Positions 24,492 through 56,588 of a DNA stretch of 64,000 bases are shown piece by piece. A program made the translations under genes and the position numbers. The DNA is from an uncultured Verrucomicrobiota bacterium (GTDB lineage Bacteria; Verrucomicrobiota; Verrucomicrobiia; Limisphaerales; MWDV01): assembly GCA_964634255.1 (NCBI GenBank), contig CAZWJC010000001.1, positions 6,116 through 70,115 of the forward strand, in the 5' to 3' direction. The notes under the pieces were generated by a model that searched no databases, was not told where the DNA came from, and saw only the letters and a list, made by a program, of their open reading frames with translations. Position 1 is the stretch's first letter, and each line of letters starts with the position of its first letter.

Positions 24492-25262
24492 GTGAGTGCC
24501 AGCCACACCGACCCAGCCACCACGCCATTGACGGCGGCGGAATCACCCGCGCGCTCCGCGTTTGTGACAACGCAGTGGTCGGCGGTGCTCGCGGCGGGGG
24601 GCGGAGATTCCGCACGTTCACACATGGCGTTGGAGCAACTTTGCCGCAACTACTGGCCGCCACTCTACGCTTACGTCCGGCGGCTCGGCCATTCGCCGCA
24701 CGACGCCCAGGACCTCACGCAAGAGTTCTTCGCCCGGTTGCTGGAGGGCCACGCCATGGCCAAGGCGGACCCTGAGCGGGGACGGTTTCGTTCCTTTCTG
24801 CTCGCGTCGTTCAAGAACTTCCTCGCGCATGAGTGGGAGAAGGCCCGGGCGCAAAAACGCGGCGGGCGGGCCCAAATCCTCTCGCTCGACCTCGACACCG
24901 CCGAAACTCGCTGCGTCCAACCGACTGCGCCGGATGATGCGCCGGACCGGGCTTTTGACCGGCAATGGGCGCTCGCGCTCCTGGACCTTGTGCTGCGCCG
25001 GCTGCGGCAGGAATACGCGGACTGCGGGCGCGATGACCTGTTCCTCGCCTTGAAGGACACGCTTTCCGGTGGCCGATCGGAAATTCCGTATCGCGAGCTG
25101 GGCGCACGGCTGGCGATGAGCGAAGGCGCGGTGAAGGTGGCAGCGCATCGGTTGCGGCAGCGGTATCGCGAACTGCTGCGCGAGGAAATCGCTAACACCG
25201 TGGCTGGCCCGGAGGAAGTTGAGGAAGAGTTGCGGCAGTTGTTTGCGGCGCTGGGTGGGTGA
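24492..25262 (+). CDS. ECF-type RNA polymerase sigma factor (kinase-associated type), copy 1
   Basis: TTQWSAVLAAG N-terminus, region 2 YWPPLYAYVRRLGHSPHDAQDLTQEFF and a region 4 HTH (AVKVAAHRLRQRYRE). Paralogous to 29721-30470 and 50571-51296. Start at GTG 24492 is uncertain; the track ORF begins at 24336. Confidence 0.85.
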   Translation: MSASHTDPATTPLTAAESPARSAFVTTQWSAVLAAGGGDSARSHMALEQLCRNYWPPLYAYVRRLGHSPHDAQDLTQEFFARLLEGHAMAKADPERGRFRSFLLASFKNFLAHEWEKARAQKRGGRAQILSLDLDTAETRCVQPTAPDDAPDRAFDRQWALALLDLVLRRLRQEYADCGRDDLFLALKDTLSGGRSEIPYRELGARLAMSEGAVKVAAHRLRQRYRELLREEIANTVAGPEEVEEELRQLFAALGG

Positions 25263-25434
25263 GCAGACGGACAGTGATCGGTCCCCGGGCACCGCCGCCG
25301 CGAATGCAGGAGCAGTTGAAATCGTCCGCCGGGACGCGTTTCTGTTCGTGCGTGCTGCGCGTCGGGGACGACGCGCGGTCCTGTTGGACCGGCGCGCTGT
25401 AACCTTGGCATTTCTTTCCGGTAGTAACCGGTGT

Positions 25435-28400
25435 ATGAACACAGAAATGTTCGCGTTTCTAGGCATGCCGGAGATCATCGTGATCTTCCTCGTGCTGCTG
25501 GGCATGGCCCTCATGGCCGCGACCGCCGCCGTGTTGCTGGTGTGGTTGCTCCGTCGCCACGAAGGGCAGCCCGAGGTCAATCCGCCGGCCCGGCAATCCG
25601 TCCAGCCGCTGCCGGAATCGGCCAGCACCTGCCCGCGCTGCGGCGCATCCTTGCCCGCCAACTCGCCGCAGGGTCTATGCCCGCGTTGTGTCATGGGCGT
25701 CGGCCTGGCGACACACACGGAAGCCCCTGGCGAAACAGGGCCGCACGGAACGAAGGTGGGCAAGCCCACTCCGTCGCCGGAAGAAATCGCCAAACACTTT
25801 CCGCAGCTCGAGATCATGGAATGCCTTGGGCGTGGTGGCATGGGCGTGGTGTACAAGGCCCGCCAGCCGAAGCTCAACCGGATGGTGGCGTTAAAGATCC
25901 TCGCGCCGGAAAAGGGCGCTGAACCGAAGTTCGCGGAGCGATTTCAGCGCGAGGCTTTGGCTCTCGCCCGGTTGAGTCACCCGAACATCGTCACGGTTCA
26001 CGACTTTGGCGAGGCGGAGGGAATGTTCTACCTGCTCATGGAATATGTGGATGGCGTGAGCTTGCGCCAGACGATGCGCGAAGGGCGCATGAAACCCGAG
26101 GAAGCGCTAGCCATCGTGCCGAAGATTTGCGAGGCGCTCCAGTTCGCCCACGAGCAGGGCATCGTGCATCGCGACATCAAGCCGGAGAACGTGCTGCTCG
26201 ACAGACAGGGCCGCGTGAAGATCGCAGATTTCGGGATCGCGAAGATTGTGGGTGAAGTAGGTCGGGCGGGCAGTCCTCTGCCCGCCGCAGTGCTAGAAGC
26301 AGAAGGCGGCGCGCACGGAGTGACGCGCCATACCAGTGCGCTCACCCAGGATCAGGTCCTCGGCACGCCGCATTACATGGCCCCGGAACAGGTGGAAAAG
26401 CCACAGTTGGTGGATCATCGCGCGGACATCTATTCGCTGGGTGTGGTGTTCTACGAAATGCTCACGGGCGAACTGCCGCTGGGCAAGTTCCAGCCGCCGT
26501 CAAAGAAGGTGCAGGTGGACGTGCGCTTGGATGAAGTAGTGTTGCGCGCGTTGGAGAAGAAGCCGGAACTGCGTTACCAGCAGGCCAGCGTGCTCAAGAC
26601 GCAGGTGGAGACGATTGCCGGCACTGGGACAGAAGGCGTTTCCTCTCATCCGCCAAAGACAGAGCCACGTTTCTTTGATTTCACCATTGGCATGCCGCAG
26701 TTCGTCCAGCGCGATGGACAAGCGCGGTGCTATTGGCCGGGGATCTTGTTGCTGTTCTCCACAATTGGGTTTGCGGTATGCGGCTTCAATCTCGCCAGCG
26801 GCCTCATTATCTGGCTGCTGGACTTGAAACTGCCGCCCGTCATTTCGTTCATCAACCTTGGCGACCTATGGCTGTGGCTGGTCTGGCTCGTGTTCAGCGC
26901 CATCGGTCGCTTGGCGGCCTTGAACTTGGGGGCGGAGAAGATCGGCAGGGCCAGCCTTACGGCATCGAAGAGCGTGAACGTGCTTCTCGTCCTTCTGGTC
27001 GCTGCCGCTTGGGCCTTCGGATTGGGGCATCTGGCTTGGTGGTTGCGCCGCACCTCCACAACCCTGCAGGCGGACAGTGGCTTCCGGATTATTTTGGGGA
27101 TCGCTCTATTGATTTTGGTCGGCTCGTTTCTGATCCGCCGCGTCTGGCGCGCTGTGAACAAGCCTCTCGCGCCCGGCGCACCGGTCGCGGCAGAGTCCGA
27201 GTCTGCTCGCCCGCCTCTCTCCCGGGCTCGCAAACGAGGGTTGTGGCTGAGTCTGGTGGTCCTGCTGGTGGTCGGATTGGTAACACTGGCTATGTGGAGT
27301 GTGCGACGGCAGGACGCAGACCGCCTTTGGGAGCAGCGGAGCTATGTGCAGCAAAAGTTGATGATCGAAACCGAGTCAAGACTTGGAGAGCTTGGCTACA
27401 GCCAAACTTGGTCAAGGACGACGGTCTCAGACGATCTTTCCAAGGCGTGGCGCGAATCCGGCCCGATGACGCGGCGCCGGACAGGTGGCGATCCGGAGTC
27501 GGTCACGAATGCGGCGGTGAGCTTGCATTATCTCGGCAACGGACGCTGGCTGGCGCTCGGTTTAGGGCAACTCTGCGAAGTCCGCTTTGAGATCAACACG
27601 CTGGCGGAGATGGCGCGCGGGCCGCTCCCCGTTCCGCCTCCGCCGCCGAGCAAGTCGTTTGACGATCTGGGGCTGCCGGTTCCACGACTGAACGTCATCG
27701 CCGGATGGAATGGGGAAACGCACGCTTTGCCGGAGCCGGTGTCTGCCGCGGAAGCATGGAAGCAGACGGAGGAATACGCAGCGTGGGAGAAGGTCCGCAA
27801 TGTCCGCAGCTTTACCTTCACCAACGCCTGCGGGTACACGTTTGAAATCCAAGCTTTGATGATGGGGCAACAGGACCAACGTCCGCGACCATTGCTCGGT
27901 GAGACGAAGCTTCGCCGACCTGACGGTGTCCTGTTGGCTTCAGCGCCGGGCGCGAACGGCGCAAACCAGCATTGGGACATCAACGTCATGGATGAGGCTG
28001 GCAACGACGTGACCGCCAAGGTGTCCGTCGAACGAGCCGCCCCCGCCGCCCCGCTTCGCGTCACCGAAGTGCGCTGGCGTCCCGACACGGCAGAGGAACG
28101 GATCTGGTCCGTCAACCGCTTTGGCGTGGCCTACGCAGAAGCCGTGGTGTCGTCCGATGGTATGCGCAAGACCGTTCGGCTGATCGAGGAATTGAAAGAC
28201 GCGCCTTACCCGCAGACGCCCGCCGGTGACGACACCAACGTCGGATTCGGCCCAACGCGCGAGGTCGTCTTGCGTGCCAAGGCGGACTGGACGGATTGCT
28301 TCCTCGACCTGCACACAGGCCGGGTAATCAGCGCTCCGCCGGAGTTGCTCGACAAGCTGCAGGAGACGCGCCCGCTTAATGATCGATTGCGCTCAATCAC

Positions 28401-28794
28401 GGACTGGCTGCGGGACAGCGGCGTCGAACTGGTGGCGCCACCTGGCGAGCACATGCGGTTTGTGGACGGCAATGTCTGCGCGCTGGATACAGGGAGCGGC
28501 AGCGTGTTTGACCGGCAGACACCGCAGTCGGTTTTGAATCTGACCCAGCGCTTTCGCCCGCAGAGCGGAGCCATCACCTTTCCCCCAATCCACGGCCGAG
28601 CAGGGCCGGCCAGCAAGGAAACGGGGACGTGGTTCTTCTGCCGGAGAGAGGAAATGGCCGGAGTGATTGAGATTCTCGATCACGATCGCAATGCGAACGT
28701 GTGGAGACTGCGATACAAGCTGGTGCAGGCGATGCCTTTGACCGAGAGCGAGATGAATTCGTCGCCCGCCTTCGCGCTGGAGAAAGGGCATTGA
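25435..28794 (+). CDS. Hanks-type Ser/Thr protein kinase with N-terminal TM + CxxC..CPxC ribbon, multi-TM region and large C-terminal domain of unknown function, copy 1
   Basis: In-frame ATG 25435. Kinase motifs GRGGMGVVYKA, VALK, HRDIKPENVLL, DFGIAK and GTPHYMAPE, followed by several hydrophobic helices and about 550 aa with no recognised family. Confidence 0.85.
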   Translation: MNTEMFAFLGMPEIIVIFLVLLGMALMAATAAVLLVWLLRRHEGQPEVNPPARQSVQPLPESASTCPRCGASLPANSPQGLCPRCVMGVGLATHTEAPGETGPHGTKVGKPTPSPEEIAKHFPQLEIMECLGRGGMGVVYKARQPKLNRMVALKILAPEKGAEPKFAERFQREALALARLSHPNIVTVHDFGEAEGMFYLLMEYVDGVSLRQTMREGRMKPEEALAIVPKICEALQFAHEQGIVHRDIKPENVLLDRQGRVKIADFGIAKIVGEVGRAGSPLPAAVLEAEGGAHGVTRHTSALTQDQVLGTPHYMAPEQVEKPQLVDHRADIYSLGVVFYEMLTGELPLGKFQPPSKKVQVDVRLDEVVLRALEKKPELRYQQASVLKTQVETIAGTGTEGVSSHPPKTEPRFFDFTIGMPQFVQRDGQARCYWPGILLLFSTIGFAVCGFNLASGLIIWLLDLKLPPVISFINLGDLWLWLVWLVFSAIGRLAALNLGAEKIGRASLTASKSVNVLLVLLVAAAWAFGLGHLAWWLRRTSTTLQADSGFRIILGIALLILVGSFLIRRVWRAVNKPLAPGAPVAAESESARPPLSRARKRGLWLSLVVLLVVGLVTLAMWSVRRQDADRLWEQRSYVQQKLMIETESRLGELGYSQTWSRTTVSDDLSKAWRESGPMTRRRTGGDPESVTNAAVSLHYLGNGRWLALGLGQLCEVRFEINTLAEMARGPLPVPPPPPSKSFDDLGLPVPRLNVIAGWNGETHALPEPVSAAEAWKQTEEYAAWEKVRNVRSFTFTNACGYTFEIQALMMGQQDQRPRPLLGETKLRRPDGVLLASAPGANGANQHWDINVMDEAGNDVTAKVSVERAAPAAPLRVTEVRWRPDTAEERIWSVNRFGVAYAEAVVSSDGMRKTVRLIEELKDAPYPQTPAGDDTNVGFGPTREVVLRAKADWTDCFLDLHTGRVISAPPELLDKLQETRPLNDRLRSITDWLRDSGVELVAPPGEHMRFVDGNVCALDTGSGSVFDRQTPQSVLNLTQRFRPQSGAITFPPIHGRAGPASKETGTWFFCRREEMAGVIEILDHDRNANVWRLRYKLVQAMPLTESEMNSSPAFALEKGH
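26265..26329. repeat. two GC-rich hairpins inside the kinase-1 activation-loop coding region
   Basis: ggcgggcag-tcct-ctgcccgcc (26265-26286; perfect 9-bp stem) and ggcgcgcac-gga-gtg(a)cgcgcc (26308-26329; 9-bp stem with one bulge). They encode ...AGSPLPAA...GGAHGVTRH.... Confidence 0.8.
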
Positions 28795-29720: not shown

Positions 29721-30470
29721 ATGAGAACGTCCAGCCCGCCAACTGCCAATCCAGCGCCGCAGGTCTTTCCCAACACGCATTGGTCACTGGTCCTAACGGC
29801 TGGTCGCAGGGACACCCCGCGGGCGCACGAAGCGCTTTCGCGGTTGTGCGAGACTTACTGGTATCCGCTCTACGCCTATGTGCGCCGGCGCGGTCAGTCG
29901 CCCCACGATGCTCAGGACCTTACGCAGGAGTTCTTCGCGCGGCTGCTGGAGCACAACTGGCTGGCCGCGGTCGATCAGGAGCGAGGTCGGTTTCGCACCT
30001 TCCTGCTCACCGCCCTGGAGCGTTTTCTTGCGAATGAGTGGGACAAGGCCCGCGCCCAGAAGCGCGGCGGCGGGAAGCCGGTCTTGCCGCTGCAATTCGA
30101 CACTGCCGAAACGCGCTTCAGCGCCGAGCCAGCCGACACCCGCACGCCGGAACAGACCTTCGAGCGGCGTTGGGCGCTGACGCTGCTGGACGAGGTGTTG
30201 CGCAGGTTGGAAGCGGAGCAACGTGCCGAGGGCAAGGCGGAACACTTCGCCACGCTCAAGCAGTGCCTCGTGGGCGACCGTGCGTCGTTGCCCTACGATC
30301 AAATCGCGCAGGCGACCGGTCTCAGCGAAGGGGCGGTAAAAGTGGCGGTGCATCGCCTCCGCGTGCGCTACCGGGAGCTGCTCCGCGCCGAAATCGCCAA
30401 CACCGTGGCGTCGGCCGATGAAGTGGACGTTGAAATGCGGCATCTCTTTAACGTGCTGACAGGGGGATGA
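29721..30470 (+). CDS. ECF-type RNA polymerase sigma factor (kinase-associated type), copy 2
   Basis: 249 aa; NTHWSLVLTAG, YWYPLYAYVRRRGQSPHDAQDLTQEFFARLLE and AVKVAVHRLRVRYRE. High similarity to copy 1. Confidence 0.9.
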   Translation: MRTSSPPTANPAPQVFPNTHWSLVLTAGRRDTPRAHEALSRLCETYWYPLYAYVRRRGQSPHDAQDLTQEFFARLLEHNWLAAVDQERGRFRTFLLTALERFLANEWDKARAQKRGGGKPVLPLQFDTAETRFSAEPADTRTPEQTFERRWALTLLDEVLRRLEAEQRAEGKAEHFATLKQCLVGDRASLPYDQIAQATGLSEGAVKVAVHRLRVRYRELLRAEIANTVASADEVDVEMRHLFNVLTGG

Positions 30471-30703
30471 AATCCGAAATCCGAAATCCCAAGCACGGCA
30501 GAACAGCCACGGCTGGTTCAAGCAAGGAGCGCGGACAGCCTTGTCCGCGCTGCTTTCGTCGGTCTTCTTCTACCAGCCGCGACAGGACAGCGGTCGAGCG
30601 CCTGGCGGATAGACTCCTGGAGTGGTTCGGGCAAGGGCCGGCTTGGTATTCGGTCTTCGGACTTCGGCATTCCTTCGGTTTTCGACCTTCGGGTTTGAAT
30701 TCC
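30469..30703. repeat. MITE/REP-like palindromic element between sigma-2 and kinase-2
   Basis: Three perfect GAAATCC heptads (30469-30489) on the left. About six degenerate inverse heptads (GGTCTTC, GGACTTC, GGCATTC, GGTTTTC, GACCTTC...) lie at about 30649-30697. Internal perfect 10-bp hairpin agcgcggaca-gcct-tgtccgcgct (30528-30551). Confidence 0.65.
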
Positions 30704-30752: not shown

Positions 30753-33737
30753 ATGGAAACGAAACGCATCTGTCAAAGTTGCGGGCGACCTCTGGCGGAC
30801 GATGCGCCGCAGGGGATGTGCCCGGAGTGCCTCATAAGGGCGGGCTTCGGTACGGGCATTGTGCCCGAACCCGGCGCGCCCACCAGCCAGCCGCCGTTCA
30901 CGCCGCCGCCGCTGGCGGAGATGGCGAAGCTATTTCCGCAGTTCGAGATTACCGAGCTGCTGGGGCGAGGTGGCATGGGCGCGGTCTATCGGGCGCGCCA
31001 GCCCGCTCTGGATCGTTGGGTGGCGCTGAAAGTCCTGCCACCACAGTCCACCTCGAAGCCGGGTTTTGCCGAGCGGTTCAATCGCGAAGCGCGGGCGCTG
31101 GCCCGCCTGAGCCACCCGAACATCGTGGCGGTGCATGAATTTGGCGAGGTGGGCGGCATGCCGTATTTTGTGATGGAATACGTCGAGGGCGTAACGCTGC
31201 GGCAGTTGGTGCGGGAGCGCCGGCTCGAACCGCGCGAGGCGCTGAAGATCGTGCCTCAAATCTGCGAAGCCCTGCAGTTCGCCCACGACGAAGGCGTCGT
31301 CCATCGCGACATCAAGCCGGAGAACATCCTGCTCGACAAACAAGGCCGGGTGAAGATCGCGGACTTTGGCATCGCAAAACTGCTGGAGCGCGGCTGTCCC
31401 AGCCGCAGCGGGAGCGGGAGTTCCGAGGTTGGCGGAGAAGTAGGAGCGTCACATTCAGTTGGAAGTGCTGCGGCTGAGACAGCCGCGCTCCAAGCCGGTC
31501 TCACACAAAACCAGGTCCTCGGTACGCCGCATTACATGGCGCCGGAGCAGGTGGAAAGACCGGCGACCGTGGATCATCGCGCCGACATTTATTCGTTGGG
31601 CGTGGTGTTCTACGAAATGCTCACTGGCGAGCTGCCATTGGGAAGGTTTCAGCCACCGTCGAAGAAGGTTCAAGTGGACGTGCGGCTCGACGAAGTTGTC
31701 CTGCACGCGTTGGAAAAGGAACCGGAGCGCCGTTATCAGCACGCCAGCGAAGTGAAGACGGCCGTCGAGAACCTCTCGACACCAAATGGTAGTCCAGCGG
31801 TGGCGGCACGACTTGGCGCGATCCCGCAGCCGGCATTTGCAGACAAAACCGCTCCTTCAAAGCGACGCGTCCCTTGGCAAATCTGGGTGGCGACGGCGCT
31901 GTTGGCGCTGGAAGGCATCGGCAACTTGTTTGCCATCCCGCGCCAACCGCAGGCAGCCGTGTGGCTGCTGGCGAAGGTCCTCTTCATCACCGGCCTGCTG
32001 CTCGGTTGGCGACCTGTGTTCGTCTTGAACCTCGTCGTCGCTGGCATCCACGTGGTTTACTTCGCCGCCGTTTCCATTCCCGTGGCGCTGATGAACCTCG
32101 TTCTGATGGTGCTCGTCGGCTCGGCGTATCGGTTCTACTTCAACGGAGCACAAGGCGCGTCGCGCCCTGCCGCCGAGGACGAGGCGACGTTGCCGCCGGA
32201 GCAAGCGACTCCCAACGCCGCCTCAGCCACCGCAACGAAGTCGCCGCGGCAAAACACGGCGCTACTGATCCTGGGTGCCGGCTTCGTGCTGCCCTCGGTG
32301 TTGTTCATTTGGTTTCTGCTCGCGGGTCATCGGCTCTATGGCGTGGACCTCGATGCCGATGTGCAGTTCTGGCTGGGTGTCGCCGGTCTGCCGATGAGTG
32401 CCGCGTTGGGATTGATGCTGGCGTGGCTCGGGCATTTGGCCTGCCGTAACGCCGGCTGGTTGTCGGGTTTGGATAGCAGGCCCGGACGCTGGTGTCCGCA
32501 AGCATGGGTGGCGGCGGCCTTGCTCGCCGTCAGCCTGCCCTTCGCAGGCGGGGCTGCGGTGATGGCGCAGCTCATCTCCAAGGACACGAGCGGTTGGCAT
32601 CCGGCCAGCGGTGAATTCTGGCTCGTGATGCTGGTGGCCGCAGGCACGCTGATGACGTTGTTCTCTTCCACGCTGCTGGGGATCACGGCTGCGAGTAAGA
32701 TCCGTCGCGGCCAGCCGCTACTGCGCGGACGTTGGCCCGCGATGGCGGCAGCCTTGTATTGGCCGGCAGTTCTGGTGTTGGTTGGCAGCCTGTTGGCACT
32801 TCCGGGTGGCGCGGACAGCGAGCCCAACCTCCTCGTCACCGGAACAGTGGCGGATGCGGAAACAGGTAAGCCGATTGCCGGCGCGCGCGTGGACGATTCG
32901 CGCTACGGCCCCAACCGCGTTCCCCAAGAAGCATGGACGGACGAAGGCGGGCGGTACGAGTTGCGGACCTGGTATGAGGAGCACACGATCTCGGCGTCCG
33001 CGCCCGGCTACGAACCCGACCTCCAGACCCTGCTGACCAAGCCGTTCGGGAAGGAGAAAGTGACGCAGATGGACTTCAAGTTACGCGCAATCGCCAAACC
33101 AGCCCCCACATCCAAGTCTGGCGTGGACCAAAGCGCTGCTCAGGAGATCGCGCGACTGAAACTCCAGAATGCCGAACAGGAACTGAAGATTGCGGAGAAC
33201 AAGTTCTCCGTGGGCGTCATGACGAAATATGACCTCCAGAAGATCCAGTGGCTGCGCGATATCGCAGTGGCGGAGGTCCAGGGCGATGTGCTGGAAGTCG
33301 CTCGGCTCAAATTGGCGATCGCCGAACTGGAGCTGCAGGTGGCCGACCAGAAGCGTTCTGTCGGCAAGGCCACGCCGCAGGACTGCGAGCAGGCCAGGCT
33401 CGCCCGCGATATCGAGATGGTCCGGTTCAAACAAACCCAAAACGCTCGCAGCAGCGCAACCAACTCAGCACCTGACAGCGCAGGTCGAAGCGAACTCAGA
33501 TTCTCCGCCAAAGGAGATCGCGTCGTGGTGGAATCATCCGATGGCCACAAGCTGACCGCCGACGATGTCAGGCTTGGCACCAACGACACGCTGGTGGCCA
33601 AGGGCAATGGGATTCTCGAGAGGCAGGAACGAAACCTGGAAATGCCGCCCCCCGCCAACCAGCCCTCCAACATCACGAGCGGACGCGCGATTCGAGCACC
33701 TTCCGAGGCGCCGAGCACCAACTCTCCGCCGAAGTGA
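30753..33737 (+). CDS. Hanks-type Ser/Thr protein kinase with CxxC..CPxC ribbon, multi-TM region, carboxypeptidase-regulatory-like domain and coiled coil, copy 2
   Basis: In-frame ATG 30753 (METKRICQSCGRPL...CPEC). Kinase motifs GRGGMGAVYRA, VALK, HRDIKPENILL, DFGIAK and GTPHYMAPE. Later VTGTVADAETGKPIAGARV...GGRYEL resembles a CarboxypepD_reg fold. Confidence 0.9.
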   Translation: METKRICQSCGRPLADDAPQGMCPECLIRAGFGTGIVPEPGAPTSQPPFTPPPLAEMAKLFPQFEITELLGRGGMGAVYRARQPALDRWVALKVLPPQSTSKPGFAERFNREARALARLSHPNIVAVHEFGEVGGMPYFVMEYVEGVTLRQLVRERRLEPREALKIVPQICEALQFAHDEGVVHRDIKPENILLDKQGRVKIADFGIAKLLERGCPSRSGSGSSEVGGEVGASHSVGSAAAETAALQAGLTQNQVLGTPHYMAPEQVERPATVDHRADIYSLGVVFYEMLTGELPLGRFQPPSKKVQVDVRLDEVVLHALEKEPERRYQHASEVKTAVENLSTPNGSPAVAARLGAIPQPAFADKTAPSKRRVPWQIWVATALLALEGIGNLFAIPRQPQAAVWLLAKVLFITGLLLGWRPVFVLNLVVAGIHVVYFAAVSIPVALMNLVLMVLVGSAYRFYFNGAQGASRPAAEDEATLPPEQATPNAASATATKSPRQNTALLILGAGFVLPSVLFIWFLLAGHRLYGVDLDADVQFWLGVAGLPMSAALGLMLAWLGHLACRNAGWLSGLDSRPGRWCPQAWVAAALLAVSLPFAGGAAVMAQLISKDTSGWHPASGEFWLVMLVAAGTLMTLFSSTLLGITAASKIRRGQPLLRGRWPAMAAALYWPAVLVLVGSLLALPGGADSEPNLLVTGTVADAETGKPIAGARVDDSRYGPNRVPQEAWTDEGGRYELRTWYEEHTISASAPGYEPDLQTLLTKPFGKEKVTQMDFKLRAIAKPAPTSKSGVDQSAAQEIARLKLQNAEQELKIAENKFSVGVMTKYDLQKIQWLRDIAVAEVQGDVLEVARLKLAIAELELQVADQKRSVGKATPQDCEQARLARDIEMVRFKQTQNARSSATNSAPDSAGRSELRFSAKGDRVVVESSDGHKLTADDVRLGTNDTLVAKGNGILERQERNLEMPPPANQPSNITSGRAIRAPSEAPSTNSPPK
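31386..31492. repeat. 25-bp inverted repeat (24/25) inside the kinase-2 activation-loop coding region
   Basis: The left arm ggagcgcggctgtcccagccgcagc (31386-31410) is the reverse complement of the right arm gctgcggctgagacagccgcgctcc (31468-31492) with one mismatch. The spacer is 57 nt. Confidence 0.85.
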
Positions 33738-54338: not shown

Positions 54339-56588
54339 ATGAGCAATTGTCAACACTGTGGGAAAGAAGTGCCGCCGGGCGTACGCCTCGGACTGTGCCC
54401 CGAGTGTTTGTTGGCGGCTGGATCAGAGACAGAAACAGGCGAGGGACACGAGTTTGGAGACGTGGTGGGGGTGGGCAGTCGTCGTTTTGGGGACTATGAG
54501 TTTGGGGAGCAAATCGGGCGCGGAGGGATGGGAGTCGTGTACCGCGCTACCCAGGTGAGCCTGCGGCGGCCGGTCGCCGTCAAGATGATCCTGGATGCGT
54601 TGCTCGACTCACCCACCGCGCGCAGGCGCTTTATGATTGAGGCCGAGGCGGCGGCCAAGCTCGACCATCCGAACATCGTTCGGATCTTTGACGTGGGGGA
54701 ACACGCCGAGCAGCCGTTTTTGAGCATGCAGTTGATCGAAGGCGAAAGCCTGCGTGTGAAATTAGGGCGGGGTGAAATGGGAGTGTCAGTCCGAGATGGT
54801 GAGCCAAAGAAAGGCCAGCTTCAGGCCCGGCAACGCGCCGTGGCTGAACTCATGGCGCTTGTTGCCCGTGCGGTGCATCACGCGCACCAGAAGGGGGTCC
54901 TGCACCGGGATCTGAAGCCGGGCAACATTCTGGTGGATTCAGACGGGCAGCCGCACCTGACGGACTTTGGATTGGCGAAGATTCTGGAAACCGGACCGGG
55001 TGAAGCCTCCACCGCTCCAGCGACCGTCTCTGGAACCGCTCAAGGCACGCCAAGCTACATGTCCCCGGAACAGGCGCTGGGGAGGCCGGTGACGCCGGCC
55101 TCAGACATCTACAGCCTCGGCGCCGTGCTCTATGAATTGCTGACAGGTCAACCTCCGTTCAAGGCTCACACGCCGCTCGAGACGCTGAAACTCGTGGTGG
55201 AGCAGGAACCGCGCAAACCTCGAACGCAGCAACCCGGGGTGGCTTTGGACTTGGAGACCATCAGCCTGAAGTGTCTCGATAAACAGCCGGAGAAACGCTA
55301 CGGCTCGGCGTTGGCGTTGGCGGAAGACTTAGAGCGGTGGCTGCGAGGCGAGCCCATCAAGGCCCGTCCGGCTGGATGGGCGGTCAGGTCTGGCCGCTGG
55401 GTGCGGCGCAACCGAGTCGTCGCCGGGCTCATTGCCAGCCTTGGCCTCGGTCTCACCAGTGCCGCATTGCTGCTGGTCAACGTGGCGGAGAAGCAAAAGG
55501 GGTTGGAGCAGTTTCGTTACGTCGAGACAAAGCGGTTCACCCGAAGCATTGAGAGCCTTTGGAGTGATTCCACGAAATCGCATGTGGAGATTGAGTCGGA
55601 GTACCTGGCAGCCATCGCTCGCCTCCAGCAACAGGAATTCGTCCCCGAAGCCCAGCGATTGACCTTCGCGTTGAATATCGGAGGTGACCCGTTTGGTCGC
55701 GCTGAGAGCTACGCCCCGGTTTTGCGGGTCATTGAAGAACGGCTTCAAGCCCACCTCCAACGGCCGATCCGTATGGATCTGAGATTGTATCGTAACAGTA
55801 ATCGGGCGTTTATGGCTGTGGCCCGGGGTGAGGTGGATTTCCAGCGTTTCAGCGCGCTCAATTACCTCCGTGCTGATGCTCTCTCCCACGATGTCGAGCC
55901 GATCGTGCAGCAGAATGCAATTCAGCAGGGAGTGATTTTCGCACGGGCGGACGCGGGCATTAGCAACTTGAGCCAGGTGGTCGGCAAACGAATTGCCTTT
56001 GCTCACACGAACTCCATGATGAGTTTCCAGGCCAAAGTGTGCCTGATCCAGGCCGGGGTAACACCTGCGAATGTGGCTTCCTTCGAAAACTTGAACCTGT
56101 CCGAGCCTGCTTCATCGGATTCAACAAATCGCAACGACGATGAGCAGCCTGCCGACGAGCGGTTCTCGCACTTCGAAGTCATCAAACGCGTGCTGGCCGG
56201 CCAGTATGACGTCGGTGAAGCGCCGTTGCGCCATTTCCGGAATAATATGTTCAAGGGGCGTAAGACCGTGCTGGTGGAACTGGTTACGTTCACCATTCCC
56301 CCGAACGTCATTGTCGCTCGGGCGGGATTAGAGCGTAACGTGATCGAAGGCTGTCGCCAGGGATTTCTGAAATTGAACGCGAGTCGGTACACGGGACTGC
56401 TCGGGAAACTCCACGGCTATTCCATCACCGGATACGAACCGGTTACGGACGCTTCGTTCAATGAACTGCGCACCGCGCTAGTCAGCCAAGCCATTTTGTT
56501 CGATCAGGAGCGTGCGCCGTCTTCGACTGTGCCTCCTACGGTCATCCCGTCCAACGCTCCACCATCTGCCACTTCCGCTGTATGGTGA
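54339..56588 (+). CDS. Hanks-type Ser/Thr protein kinase with CxxC..CPxC ribbon, one TM and a periplasmic PhnD-like substrate-binding domain, copy 3
   Basis: MSNCQHCG...CPEC. Kinase motifs GRGGMGVVYRA, VAVK, HRDLKPGNILV, DFGLAK and GTPSYMSPE. TM VVAGLIASLGLGLTSAALLLV. C-terminal ...GEVDFQRFSALNY...IAFAHTNSMMSFQAK... resembles phosphonate-type periplasmic binding proteins. Confidence 0.9.
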   Translation: MSNCQHCGKEVPPGVRLGLCPECLLAAGSETETGEGHEFGDVVGVGSRRFGDYEFGEQIGRGGMGVVYRATQVSLRRPVAVKMILDALLDSPTARRRFMIEAEAAAKLDHPNIVRIFDVGEHAEQPFLSMQLIEGESLRVKLGRGEMGVSVRDGEPKKGQLQARQRAVAELMALVARAVHHAHQKGVLHRDLKPGNILVDSDGQPHLTDFGLAKILETGPGEASTAPATVSGTAQGTPSYMSPEQALGRPVTPASDIYSLGAVLYELLTGQPPFKAHTPLETLKLVVEQEPRKPRTQQPGVALDLETISLKCLDKQPEKRYGSALALAEDLERWLRGEPIKARPAGWAVRSGRWVRRNRVVAGLIASLGLGLTSAALLLVNVAEKQKGLEQFRYVETKRFTRSIESLWSDSTKSHVEIESEYLAAIARLQQQEFVPEAQRLTFALNIGGDPFGRAESYAPVLRVIEERLQAHLQRPIRMDLRLYRNSNRAFMAVARGEVDFQRFSALNYLRADALSHDVEPIVQQNAIQQGVIFARADAGISNLSQVVGKRIAFAHTNSMMSFQAKVCLIQAGVTPANVASFENLNLSEPASSDSTNRNDDEQPADERFSHFEVIKRVLAGQYDVGEAPLRHFRNNMFKGRKTVLVELVTFTIPPNVIVARAGLERNVIEGCRQGFLKLNASRYTGLLGKLHGYSITGYEPVTDASFNELRTALVSQAILFDQERAPSSTVPPTVIPSNAPPSATSAVW

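Follow-up and report, generated by a model that had tools for sequence, protein, structure and literature searches.

The activation loop of kinase 2, a Hanks-type Ser/Thr kinase encoded in the window (the whole 64-kb stretch of DNA that was analysed), contains an in-frame 107-bp palindrome. This palindrome is probably a REP doublet, i.e., a non-autonomous selfish element of the REPIN/RPE-like kind, which is tolerated in a permissive loop. The element consists of two REP-like units of 25 nt in inverted orientation, which have a small hairpin each and are placed about 57 nt apart. A copy that lands in a permissive loop in the right register can be read through, as in this activation loop of a sigma-linked kinase. 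Its 35 extra codons add a stretch rich in Gly, Ser and Ala, for which disorder is predicted, and leave the catalytic core intact. The features on which this reading is based are as follows.

29721..30470, + strand: ECF-type sigma factor gene upstream of kinase 2 (Pfam Sigma70_r2, r4_2)
30753..33737, + strand: kinase 2 CDS, from ATG 30753; the longest ORF starts at TTG 30723 (ORF, Pfam)
31362..31547, + strand: kinase 2 activation segment, DFGIAK to GTPHYMAPE, 47 residues between the motifs
31385..31491, no strand assigned: 107-bp palindromic element ("family B"), two inverted REP-like arms and a spacer
31385..31409, + strand: left arm GGAGCGCGGCTGTCCCAGCCGCAGC, translated ERGCPSRS
31390..31406, + strand: left-arm mini-hairpin GCGGCTG, loop TCC, CAGCCGC (direct repeat D2, ssDNA fold)
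31410..31466, + strand: 57-nt spacer, translated GSGSSEVGGEVGASHSVGS
31467..31491, - strand: right arm, reverse complement GGAGCGCGGCTGTCTCAGCCGCAGC, translated AAAETAAL
31470..31486, + strand: right-arm mini-hairpin GCGGCTG, loop AGA, CAGCCGC (repeat finder, ssDNA fold, compensatory changes in the family)

Kinase 2 matches Pkinase (PF00069, E = 8e-52) and possesses the HRD, DFG and APE motifs (HRDIKPEN...DFGIAK...GTPHYMAPE). The remainder of the protein comprises a membrane region, a CarboxypepD_reg domain (Pfam) and a coiled-coil tail. Pairing of an ECF sigma factor with a Hanks-type kinase is known from the ECF43 type, as in EcfP/PknT of Vibrio. Kinase 2 is similar to such kinases in its HRD/DFG/APE motifs and in its location immediately downstream of a sigma gene of the ECF type, which shows 82% identity to the sigma gene upstream of the homologous kinase L118 k532. 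However, its activation segment exceeds that of 194 of 240 close homologues by about 30 residues because of the repeat element.

The placement of the palindrome in frame between DFGIAK and GTPHYMAPE, as proposed in the initial annotation, was borne out by translation of the Pkinase ORF (30723/30753-33737), in which the element encodes ERGCPSRSGSGSSEVGGEVGASHSVGSAAAETAAL. Its first base is the third position of a Leu codon and its last base the first position of a Gln codon, with 35 full codons in between, and it lies just upstream of the LTQ threonine that is conserved in the activation loop. Since 107 bp is not a multiple of three and the loop exceeds the normal length by only about 30 residues, either the insertion was imprecise or about 14-20 nt were deleted afterwards. 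AlphaFold gave the kinase core pLDDT values above 90 and residues 155-197, which make up the insert, values below 50, and the insert is thus predicted to be disordered.

The inverted repeat first noticed in kinase 2 is real, with 24 of 25 arm positions matching (25 of 26 if the arms are extended) and 57 nt between the arms, but the coordinates first given were off by one base. The exact 25-mers are 31385-31409 and 31467-31491, and a repeat finder run on the window returned arms of 26 nt (31384-31409 and 31467-31492) that are 96% complementary. The lone mismatch (31399 C versus 31477 A) lies in the mini-hairpin loop and is the family's one polymorphic position. Stable folding was predicted for the 107-bp unit both as RNA (-72.8 kcal/mol, z = -6.3) and as ssDNA (-35.6 kcal/mol, z = -6.7). 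The left-arm mini-hairpin, with a 7-bp stem and a 3-nt loop, folds as ssDNA at -10.1 kcal/mol (z = -3.6; about -3.5 for the arm).

Several other classes of structured DNA were considered and rejected. attC sites have RYYYAAC/GTTRRRY ends, CRISPR repeats form a regular direct-repeat array and an intrinsic terminator has a T-run; the element lacks these ends and a T-run, and no regular direct-repeat array is present there. A search against Rfam gave sub-threshold matches to microRNA-like hairpins only. A resemblance to the hairpin at 30528-30551, upstream of kinase 2, had also been suggested, but the kinship was not supported: the two have only the 9-mer GGAGCGCGG and the ending GCGCT in common. 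That hairpin matched no family arm at up to 5 mismatches, and a search of 0.93 Mb of related DNA, with up to 4 mismatches allowed, yielded no further copy of it.

The presence of only one family-B doublet in the 64-kb window would be in keeping with a local origin of the palindrome, whether by chance, through replication with template switching or fold-back, or as an artefact of assembly or sequencing. We give this explanation practically no weight. The arm was not matched at up to 3 mismatches in any of 100 dinucleotide shuffles of the window. Arms that are the same as those in the window, or that differ only at the polymorphic loop base, were present in independent assemblies representing at least 25 species. 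Moreover, kinases in four other assemblies carry homologous in-frame copies of exactly 107 nt. The sequencing errors envisaged in the initial annotation are refuted by these matches.

An arm pattern scan revealed that the arm GGAGCGCGGCTGTCYCAGCCGCAGC is a dispersed repeat, present in at least 115 stretches that are nearly all from Verrucomicrobiota MAGs. Family B occurs as many dispersed copies in Verrucomicrobiota of the Limisphaerales/Pedosphaera type, and the highest tally for a single MAG among the matches listed was 17 loci. The arm statistics were obtained from the 199 arms among the matches listed, with 0.93 Mb of surrounding loci. By megablast, none of these loci matches the window, and kinase 2 has no exact counterpart among protein records. 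In this set, 136 arms sit in inverted pairs with spacing classes of 80-82 or 119-121 nt, and 63 have no inverted partner within 220 nt. The modal start-to-start spacing is 80-82 nt (82 in the window copy), and most copies are inverted doublets sharing the 107-bp geometry. The left arm of the window is the commonest arm sequence (73 of the 199 listed arms) and its right arm is the second commonest variant (29 of 199); at the polymorphic loop, 140 arms have TCC and 49 have TCT. At stem pair 10-18 of the mini-hairpin, C:G is changed to G:C in 27 arms and unpaired combinations occur in only 5, and compensatory changes were seen at pairs 10-18, 9-19 and 12-16. The units end in Y-GGAGCGC...GCGCTCC-R and have heterogeneous flanks. 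Text searches of 8 million papers with either mini-hairpin sequence gave no match; by this measure, family B is apparently an undescribed repeat family.

It is also conceivable that family B is a classical MITE, that is, a deletion derivative of an insertion sequence that has 25-bp terminal inverted repeats and is moved in trans by a DDE transposase. MITEs duplicate their target, which is TA in the case of Correia, and can be traced to a recognisable insertion sequence. Family B resembles the Correia/NEMIS, ERIC and Nezha MITEs in being small and non-coding, with inverted ends of about 25 bp, many copies and sometimes an in-frame position. Its terminal inverted repeats, its length of about 107-145 bp, its several copies per genome and the conservation of its interior within one MAG, where the entire unit is repeated with its spacer in both orientations, would all be expected of a MITE. 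However, target-site duplication was absent (0 nt shared at 52 of 68 family-B junctions, longest match 3 nt), and the loci showed no parent insertion sequence bounded by family-B arms. Just one transposase was encountered between two arms, an IS110 enzyme in L108, and it looks like a secondary insertion into a doublet. Each arm has a conserved hairpin of its own with compensatory changes, which is a signature of REPs rather than of transposase-binding terminal repeats, and almost a third of the listed arms (the 63 noted above) stand without an inverted partner. Across many species, in addition, the arms are nearly identical and the interiors are unrelated. We consider a MITE very unlikely on these grounds.

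As a REP doublet, the element would have spread through a single-stranded hairpin intermediate with the help of a trans-acting enzyme, and a RAYT-type HUH tyrosine transposase would be the obvious candidate. Two regular-expression scans and tblastn with the RAYT of L006 detected no RAYT flanked by family-B arms in the 0.93 Mb of loci and the window, and clustering of all ORFs within 2.5 kb of the arms yielded no recurrent transposase. The sole RAYT in the loci, that of L006 (Pfam Y1_Tnp), is flanked by GTAG-type REPs and not by family B.

Most family-B doublets gave no indication of an intragenic position. Most lie near one end of the longest open frame that spans them, or are spanned by a short frame only. 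Outside the window, 5 of 67 doublets are inside confirmed genes, a figure that includes only individually confirmed cases. The copies in question are in frame inside the Pfam domains of TrpE (L026), GlnRS (L042), MnmA (L115) and an MbnP/CCP peroxidase protein (L077), and in a kinase activation loop (L013). More kinases with family B are P0185, P0226, P0127, L118 k532 and L120; a scan of metagenomes for the right arm followed by YMAPE returned a single contig, L120. The arms are read in three different frames in unrelated enzymes. They contain no stop codons in any of the six frames, so that a copy in a permissive surface loop can be read through when it is in the right register.

The initial annotation had suggested that palindromes entered a tolerant or hot site in these kinases, either by independent insertion or by replacement of one element with another. 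This suggestion is supported not only by the dispersal of family B but also by the kinase homologues: the interval between DFGIAK and GTPHYMAPE has 16-19 residues in 194 of 240, versus 47 in kinase 2, and about 46 of the 240 carry activation-loop inserts from at least 6 unrelated repeat families. Within the kinase domain, inserts of 10 or more residues were confined to the beta4-beta5 loop and the activation loop in the 240 homologues. Orthologous genes have different repeat families or none at the activation loop; the orthologue in L117 has a different family, and P0001, the closest homologue by kinase domain, has no insert. The same loop is occupied in kinase 1 of the window by the following feature.

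26257..26333, + strand: kinase 1 insert, GTAG-tagged REP dimer ("family A"), in the same loop as in kinase 2

This insert is composed of GTAGG and the hairpin GGCGGGCAG/CTGCCCGCC, followed by the hairpin GGCGCG..CGCGCC and ATAC. It had been described as unrelated to the kinase 2 insert and located at the same site, and alignment agrees with this: the flanks align well and the inserts do not. A canonical intergenic family-A copy in L060 has GTAGGGCGGGCAG and GACGCGCCCTAC at its two ends. The kinase 1-type insert peptide is also found in P0154, P0178, P0239, P0143, P0198 and P0058, and the GTAG tag is borne by the kinase 1 insert and by that of P0121. With repeat families in a central signalling loop of about 1 in 5 close homologues, these kinases provide a natural experiment on how far an activation loop can be altered.

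Residues 1 to ~320 of kinase 2 are 88-97% identical to L118 k532, a neighbouring-paralogue kinase in GCA_037975375.1, and those from ~340 onwards show 85-97% identity to P0121. Kinase 2 is thus a chimera, a fusion of two tandem paralogues. Its kinase domain as a whole shares 88% identity with L118 k532, and the spacer (31410..31466) matches that of the orthologous L118 kinase at 38 of 57 positions, versus 8-27 of 57 for the spacers of other family-B copies. Judging from these identities, the kinase 2 copy was inherited rather than recently acquired and is older than the split from GCA_037975375.1. The copy came with the kinase domain, whose orthologue in that genome bears the element too. All five kinase-borne family-B copies are exactly 107 nt. 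They are more alike mutually than the non-kinase copies, which indicates that descent and paralogue exchange contribute besides new insertion. Two candidates for an empty site were set aside: P0001, the best kinase-domain match, is a shorter paralogue, and P0122, which is syntenic, adjoins a beta-lactamase gene and has an empty loop, does not represent a genuine empty site because it is orthologous to the C-terminal half of kinase 2 only.

The persistence of the element in the kinase may be due to near-neutrality at this position. Between orthologous copies, however, the arms have changed at about one third the rate of the spacer (6/50 versus 19/57 changes, and 7/50 versus 27/57), and pure neutrality fails to explain this conservation of the arms. 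It is possible that an element of selfish origin was later co-opted, with the Ser/Gly-rich loop tuning the kinase or the mRNA or DNA hairpin controlling expression, which would explain the intact arms. The slower change of the arms is consistent with co-option, as are the high stability predicted for the hairpin and the position of the insert next to the LTQ threonine. The kinase 2 arms are also still the exact family consensus, allowing for the polymorphic base in the loop, even though the element is older than the split from GCA_037975375.1. On the other hand, the element of L118 k532 is decaying and has lost its left arm (4-5 changes), and the long hairpin is therefore dispensable there. 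The different family in the L117 orthologue and the lack of an insert in P0001 also argue against a retained function. The peptide encoded by the spacer is not conserved, the insert is predicted to be disordered, and the same arms occur in unrelated enzymes in three reading frames. Taken together, we regard co-option as unlikely. A broader proposal is that, in sigma-linked Ser/Thr kinases of Verrucomicrobiota, the activation loop and, less markedly, the beta4-beta5 loop serve as recurrent landing and exchange sites for at least 6 palindromic repeat families whose arms are actively maintained by selection or homogenisation. Hairpin DNA would then diversify the regulatory loops of kinases or act as a DNA or RNA switch within the gene, rather than being tolerated junk. 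This proposal is somewhat more doubtful still. Near-invariant arms beside freely diverging spacers point to a protein partner or a homogenising process that is worth finding.

A selfish REP doublet, the reading that we prefer, places family B close to the REP doublets, REPINs and BIMEs of other bacteria (Bertels and Rainey 2011, PMC3116915; Di Nocera et al. 2013, PMC3733652). Family B is like them in its unit of about 25 nt with a short G+C-rich palindrome, in the inverted pairing of units around a spacer of tens of nucleotides to form a long hairpin, and in its many dispersed copies, repetition of the entire unit within one MAG, lack of target duplication and occasional intragenic dimers that add a few tens of residues. 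It differs in that its arms start with Y-GGAGC and have at the end neither GTAG nor CGTC, the tetranucleotides typical of RAYT-linked REPs, and in that no cognate RAYT flanked by its arms was found in the loci or the window. REPIN sequences usually differ between species, whereas the family-B arm hardly varies over many of them. Opitutus terrae, a verrucomicrobium, and R. conorii have the largest numbers of REP dimers within genes, where these encode 20-30 residues (PMC3733652). RPE (Ogata et al. 2000, cited in PMC3733652) are about 100-150 bp long, and these palindromic repeats lie in frame in intact genes and are also intergenic. Family B is comparable in lying in frame inside intact genes (TrpE, GlnRS, MnmA, MbnP and kinases), where it adds a surface peptide, and in occurring between genes as well. 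RPE have Rickettsiales as hosts and family B resides in free-living Verrucomicrobiota, where a kinase activation loop has been occupied repeatedly by several families. By its structure and placement, family B may be viewed as an analogue of RPE and not as a member. Peptides of Verrucomicrobiota such as ERGCPSRS..AAAGTAALQ, GRAGSPLPA..GAHGVTRPT and PPSGGPDRLKPEL are repeat-derived and should not be annotated as conserved motifs. The insertion of palindromic repeats into genes is a type of event already known from Rickettsia and Opitutus, and the results presented here extend the Rickettsia-style read-through of selfish palindromic DNA to free-living Verrucomicrobiota with large genomes.

A repeat finder recovered the 25-bp inverted repeat with a 57-nt spacer that the initial annotation had described in kinase 2, as arms of 26 nt (31384-31409 and 31467-31492) that are 96% complementary and have 57 nt between them. 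The repeat itself stood, and its positions moved by one base, the 25-mers lying at 31385-31409 and 31467-31491 rather than at 31386-31410 and 31468-31492. Each arm of this element, called family B here, is also a small hairpin in itself, a feature absent from that annotation.

Features of the window
25219-28794, kinase 1
26257-26333, insert of kinase 1, a GTAG-tagged REP dimer of two different hairpins
30753-33737 (+), kinase 2, a Ser/Thr kinase gene downstream of an ECF-type sigma gene
31385-31491, family-B element of kinase 2, 107 bp
31390-31406 and 31470-31486, mini-hairpins of the two arms (GCGGCTG, 3-nt loop, CAGCCGC)

Folding energies of the 107-bp unit are -72.8 kcal/mol for RNA (z = -6.3) and -35.6 kcal/mol for ssDNA (z = -6.7), and each mini-hairpin reaches -10.1 kcal/mol as ssDNA. 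When the window was dinucleotide-shuffled 100 times, no match to the arm appeared at 3 or fewer mismatches. The proposed in-frame position between DFGIAK and GTPHYMAPE was borne out by an open reading frame with a Pkinase domain, in which the unit encodes ERGCPSRSGSGSSEVGGEVGASHSVGSAAAETAAL. The activation loop exceeds the normal length by about 30 residues instead of 36; some codons of the native loop were therefore lost. AlphaFold gave a confident core for the kinase domain (pLDDT >90 over most of residues 1-150) and pLDDT <50 over the insert (residues 155-197).

Searching for the arms in other genomes revealed that they are multi-copy in related MAGs, the source genome not being among these; the 64-kb window holds a single family-B doublet. 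With GAGCGCGGCTGTCNCAGCCGC as query and one genome per species, at least 115 stretches were matched. Among the matches listed, nearly all were MAGs labelled Verrucomicrobiota, Limisphaerales, Pedosphaera or subdivision 3 (17 loci in CAIQKM01, 7 each in JBEKSU01 and JACRJZ01), and 136 of the 199 arms at 5 or fewer mismatches stood in inverted pairs. The start-to-start spacing of the arms has its mode at 80-82 nt (82 in the window) and a second class at 119-121 nt. The unit ends sharply (Y-GGAGCGC...GCGCTCC-R) in flanking DNA that is otherwise unrelated between copies, and the spacers vary from genome to genome. No target-site duplication was found at family-B copies (52 of 68 junctions had 0 common bases), and a DDE-type MITE was rejected on this test. 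One MAG repeats the entire unit in both orientations, showing that it is the whole doublet that multiplies.

The family-B arm is nearly invariant in at least 25 species. Substitution between orthologous copies is about three times slower in the arms than in the spacers: 6/50 vs 19/57 positions between kinase 2 and k532 (a 532-residue kinase of GCA_037975375.1), and 7/50 vs 27/57 between the kinases of contigs L013 and L120. Stem pair 10-18 of the mini-hairpin has switched from C:G to G:C in 27 arms, with unpaired combinations in 5, and pairs 9-19 and 12-16 also show compensatory changes in smaller numbers; across family B the mini-hairpin is kept by compensatory change. The near-invariance of the arm points to binding by a conserved partner, to homogenisation with other copies, or to selection that acts on the hairpin.

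A tandem array of six copies of a 213-bp unit (L001:3110-4405, 95% matches) carries one family-B arm variant per unit (GCGGGTG...CACCCGC). In a Hyphomonadaceae MAG, four contigs have a shortened doublet with arms 38-42 nt apart from start to start. Family-B repeats also occur in several MAGs labelled Bifidobacteriaceae, Bifidobacterium or Klebsiella (L013, L018, L044, L060, L072, L113, L055 and others). The contigs inspected included a kinase of Verrucomicrobiota type (L013) and a REP dimer of family A (L060), and these third-party assemblies appear to be mislabelled taxonomically.

No mobilising enzyme for family B was found in the loci examined. Their sole RAYT (L006:1000-2350; Pfam Y1_Tnp, HVH motif and SYDHLIR) has GTAG REP doublets on both sides (GTAGGGCAGG...CCTGCC plus a second hairpin) and is with them a classical REPtron; a family-B doublet lies 4 kb away on the same contig. 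At L108:2975-4693, two inverted family-B arms stand 1.7 kb apart with an IS110-family transposase gene between them (Pfam DEDD_Tnp_IS110 and Transposase_20), most likely an IS110 inserted into a family-B doublet. REP sequences are known targets of IS110 elements. They have also been noted as insertion-sequence targets in general (PMC3733652).

The arm is free of stop codons in every frame, the left one reading ERGCPSRS, GARLSQPQ or SAAVPAAA and the right one AAAGTAAL, LRLGQPRS or CGWDSRAP. For most doublets, the longest spanning open frame is short or has the doublet close to one of its ends, which suggests, as judged from open frames rather than individual annotation, that they are intergenic. 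Outside the window, five doublets are located well within genes and fall in the span of Pfam domains.

Family-B doublets inside genes
L026, TrpE
L042, GlnRS
L115, MnmA
L077, MbnP/cytochrome-c-peroxidase protein
L013, kinase of the kinase 2 family, at the same activation-loop position

The activation loop is a recurrent site. The distance from DFGxxK to GTPxYMAPE is 16-19 residues in 194 of 240 close homologues and longer in about 46, and the inserts sort into recognisable, mutually unrelated types.

Types of activation-loop insert
Family A, GRAGSPLPA..GGAHGVTRPT, kinase 1 and six others
Family B, ERGC(P/L)SRS..AAAGTAALQ, kinase 2, P0185, P0226, P0127, L013, L120 and k532 of L118
Family C, PLTPSLSPSDGERV.., eight homologues
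Family D, RDASPRRP.., three homologues
Family E, GEAGQADAAQ.., five homologues
Family F, VVPPSGGPDRLKPEL, P0121, P0135 and kinase k1 of L117

The inserts of kinases 1 and 2 are indeed unrelated and occupy the same site, with closely aligned coding flanks. The suggestion of independent insertions into a tolerant or hot site was also upheld, since different repeat families at the loop must be separate insertions. In DNA sequence, families A and F prove to be REP dimers with a GTAG tag. Both are also present outside kinases, F in L002 and L052, and A as a canonical copy between genes in L060, where a family-B arm lies about 90 nt away; different repeat families therefore cluster. Within the kinase domain, inserts of at least 10 residues occur at two sites only, the activation loop (about 45 sequences) and the beta4-beta5 loop (about 10); most simply, selection acts as a filter and lets inserts persist in permissive loops alone. 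Orthologous kinases in L013 (6773-7999) and L120 (ORF near 1614) have two inserts each, the second of about 30-45 residues in the N-lobe beta4-beta5 loop beside family B in the activation loop. A third Ser/Thr kinase of the window, near 54903, has a near-normal loop of 21 residues without a repeat element. What most deserves follow-up is that one regulatory loop is occupied time and again.

The nearest kinase domain to that of kinase 2 is k532 (L118:3380-4978, 88% identity), which has a family-B copy in the corresponding place, with a decayed left arm and 1 change in the right arm. Their spacers match at 38/57 positions, vs 8-27 for other copies. L118 and the window are syntenic: sigma, k532, sigma, P0122 and beta-lactamase follow one another in L118, and sigma, kinase 2 and beta-lactamase in the window. 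In sliding identity, residues 1 to about 320 of kinase 2 track k532 (88-97%), and those from about 340 to the end track P0121 and P0122 (85-97% to P0121). Upstream, the sigma gene shares 82% identity with the sigma preceding k532 and 67% with that preceding P0122. Taken together, these identities and the synteny make kinase 2 a fusion of two tandem paralogues, with the crossover near 31700-31780. The family-B element came with the 5' half, and the arrangement implies that one sigma gene was lost between tandem sigma-kinase units, by deletion or by unequal crossover.

The P0122 loop is empty. In L117, the k532 orthologue has family F, not B, at the orthologous position, and the neighbouring P0121 has a near-identical insert with similar junctions in the same loop (L117:1-330 and L117:2641-2787), suggesting gene conversion between tandem paralogues. 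Every kinase-borne family-B copy is exactly 107 nt. Their spacers match one another at a mean of 29.2/57 positions, vs 20.7/57 to non-kinase spacers (Mann-Whitney p = 2e-5, the pairs not being independent). Given this closeness, family B probably entered the kinase loop once or a few times, followed by descent and paralogue exchange.

Relative to the orthologous L118 spacer, the sigma-kinase 2 spacer (about 30472-30695) contains about 218 extra nt, with (ATCCGAA)n-like repeats at the start and their approximate reverse complement (TTCGG-rich) at the end. This segment, which looks like a separate inserted element, contains a 10-bp-stem hairpin (30528-30551) that had no other copy in 0.93 Mb of related DNA.

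Rfam gave no match above threshold, and the literature searched contained neither a text match to the mini-hairpin sequence of either arm nor a link of REPs to kinase activation loops. At the sequence level, the features of family B are hallmarks of REP units in a REPIN/BIME-like doublet, and the element works like a REP doublet or REPIN. RAYT-linked REPs typically carry a GTAG or CGTC tag, and the family-B arm has neither; without the tag, and with no cognate RAYT among the loci examined, membership of that class cannot be claimed. In its coding copies, family B behaves within genes as the Rickettsia palindromic elements do, and as intragenic GTAG/CGTC REP dimers have also been described to do. 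Those dimers were commonest in the verrucomicrobium Opitutus terrae, encoding 20-30 residues there (Di Nocera et al., PMC3733652).
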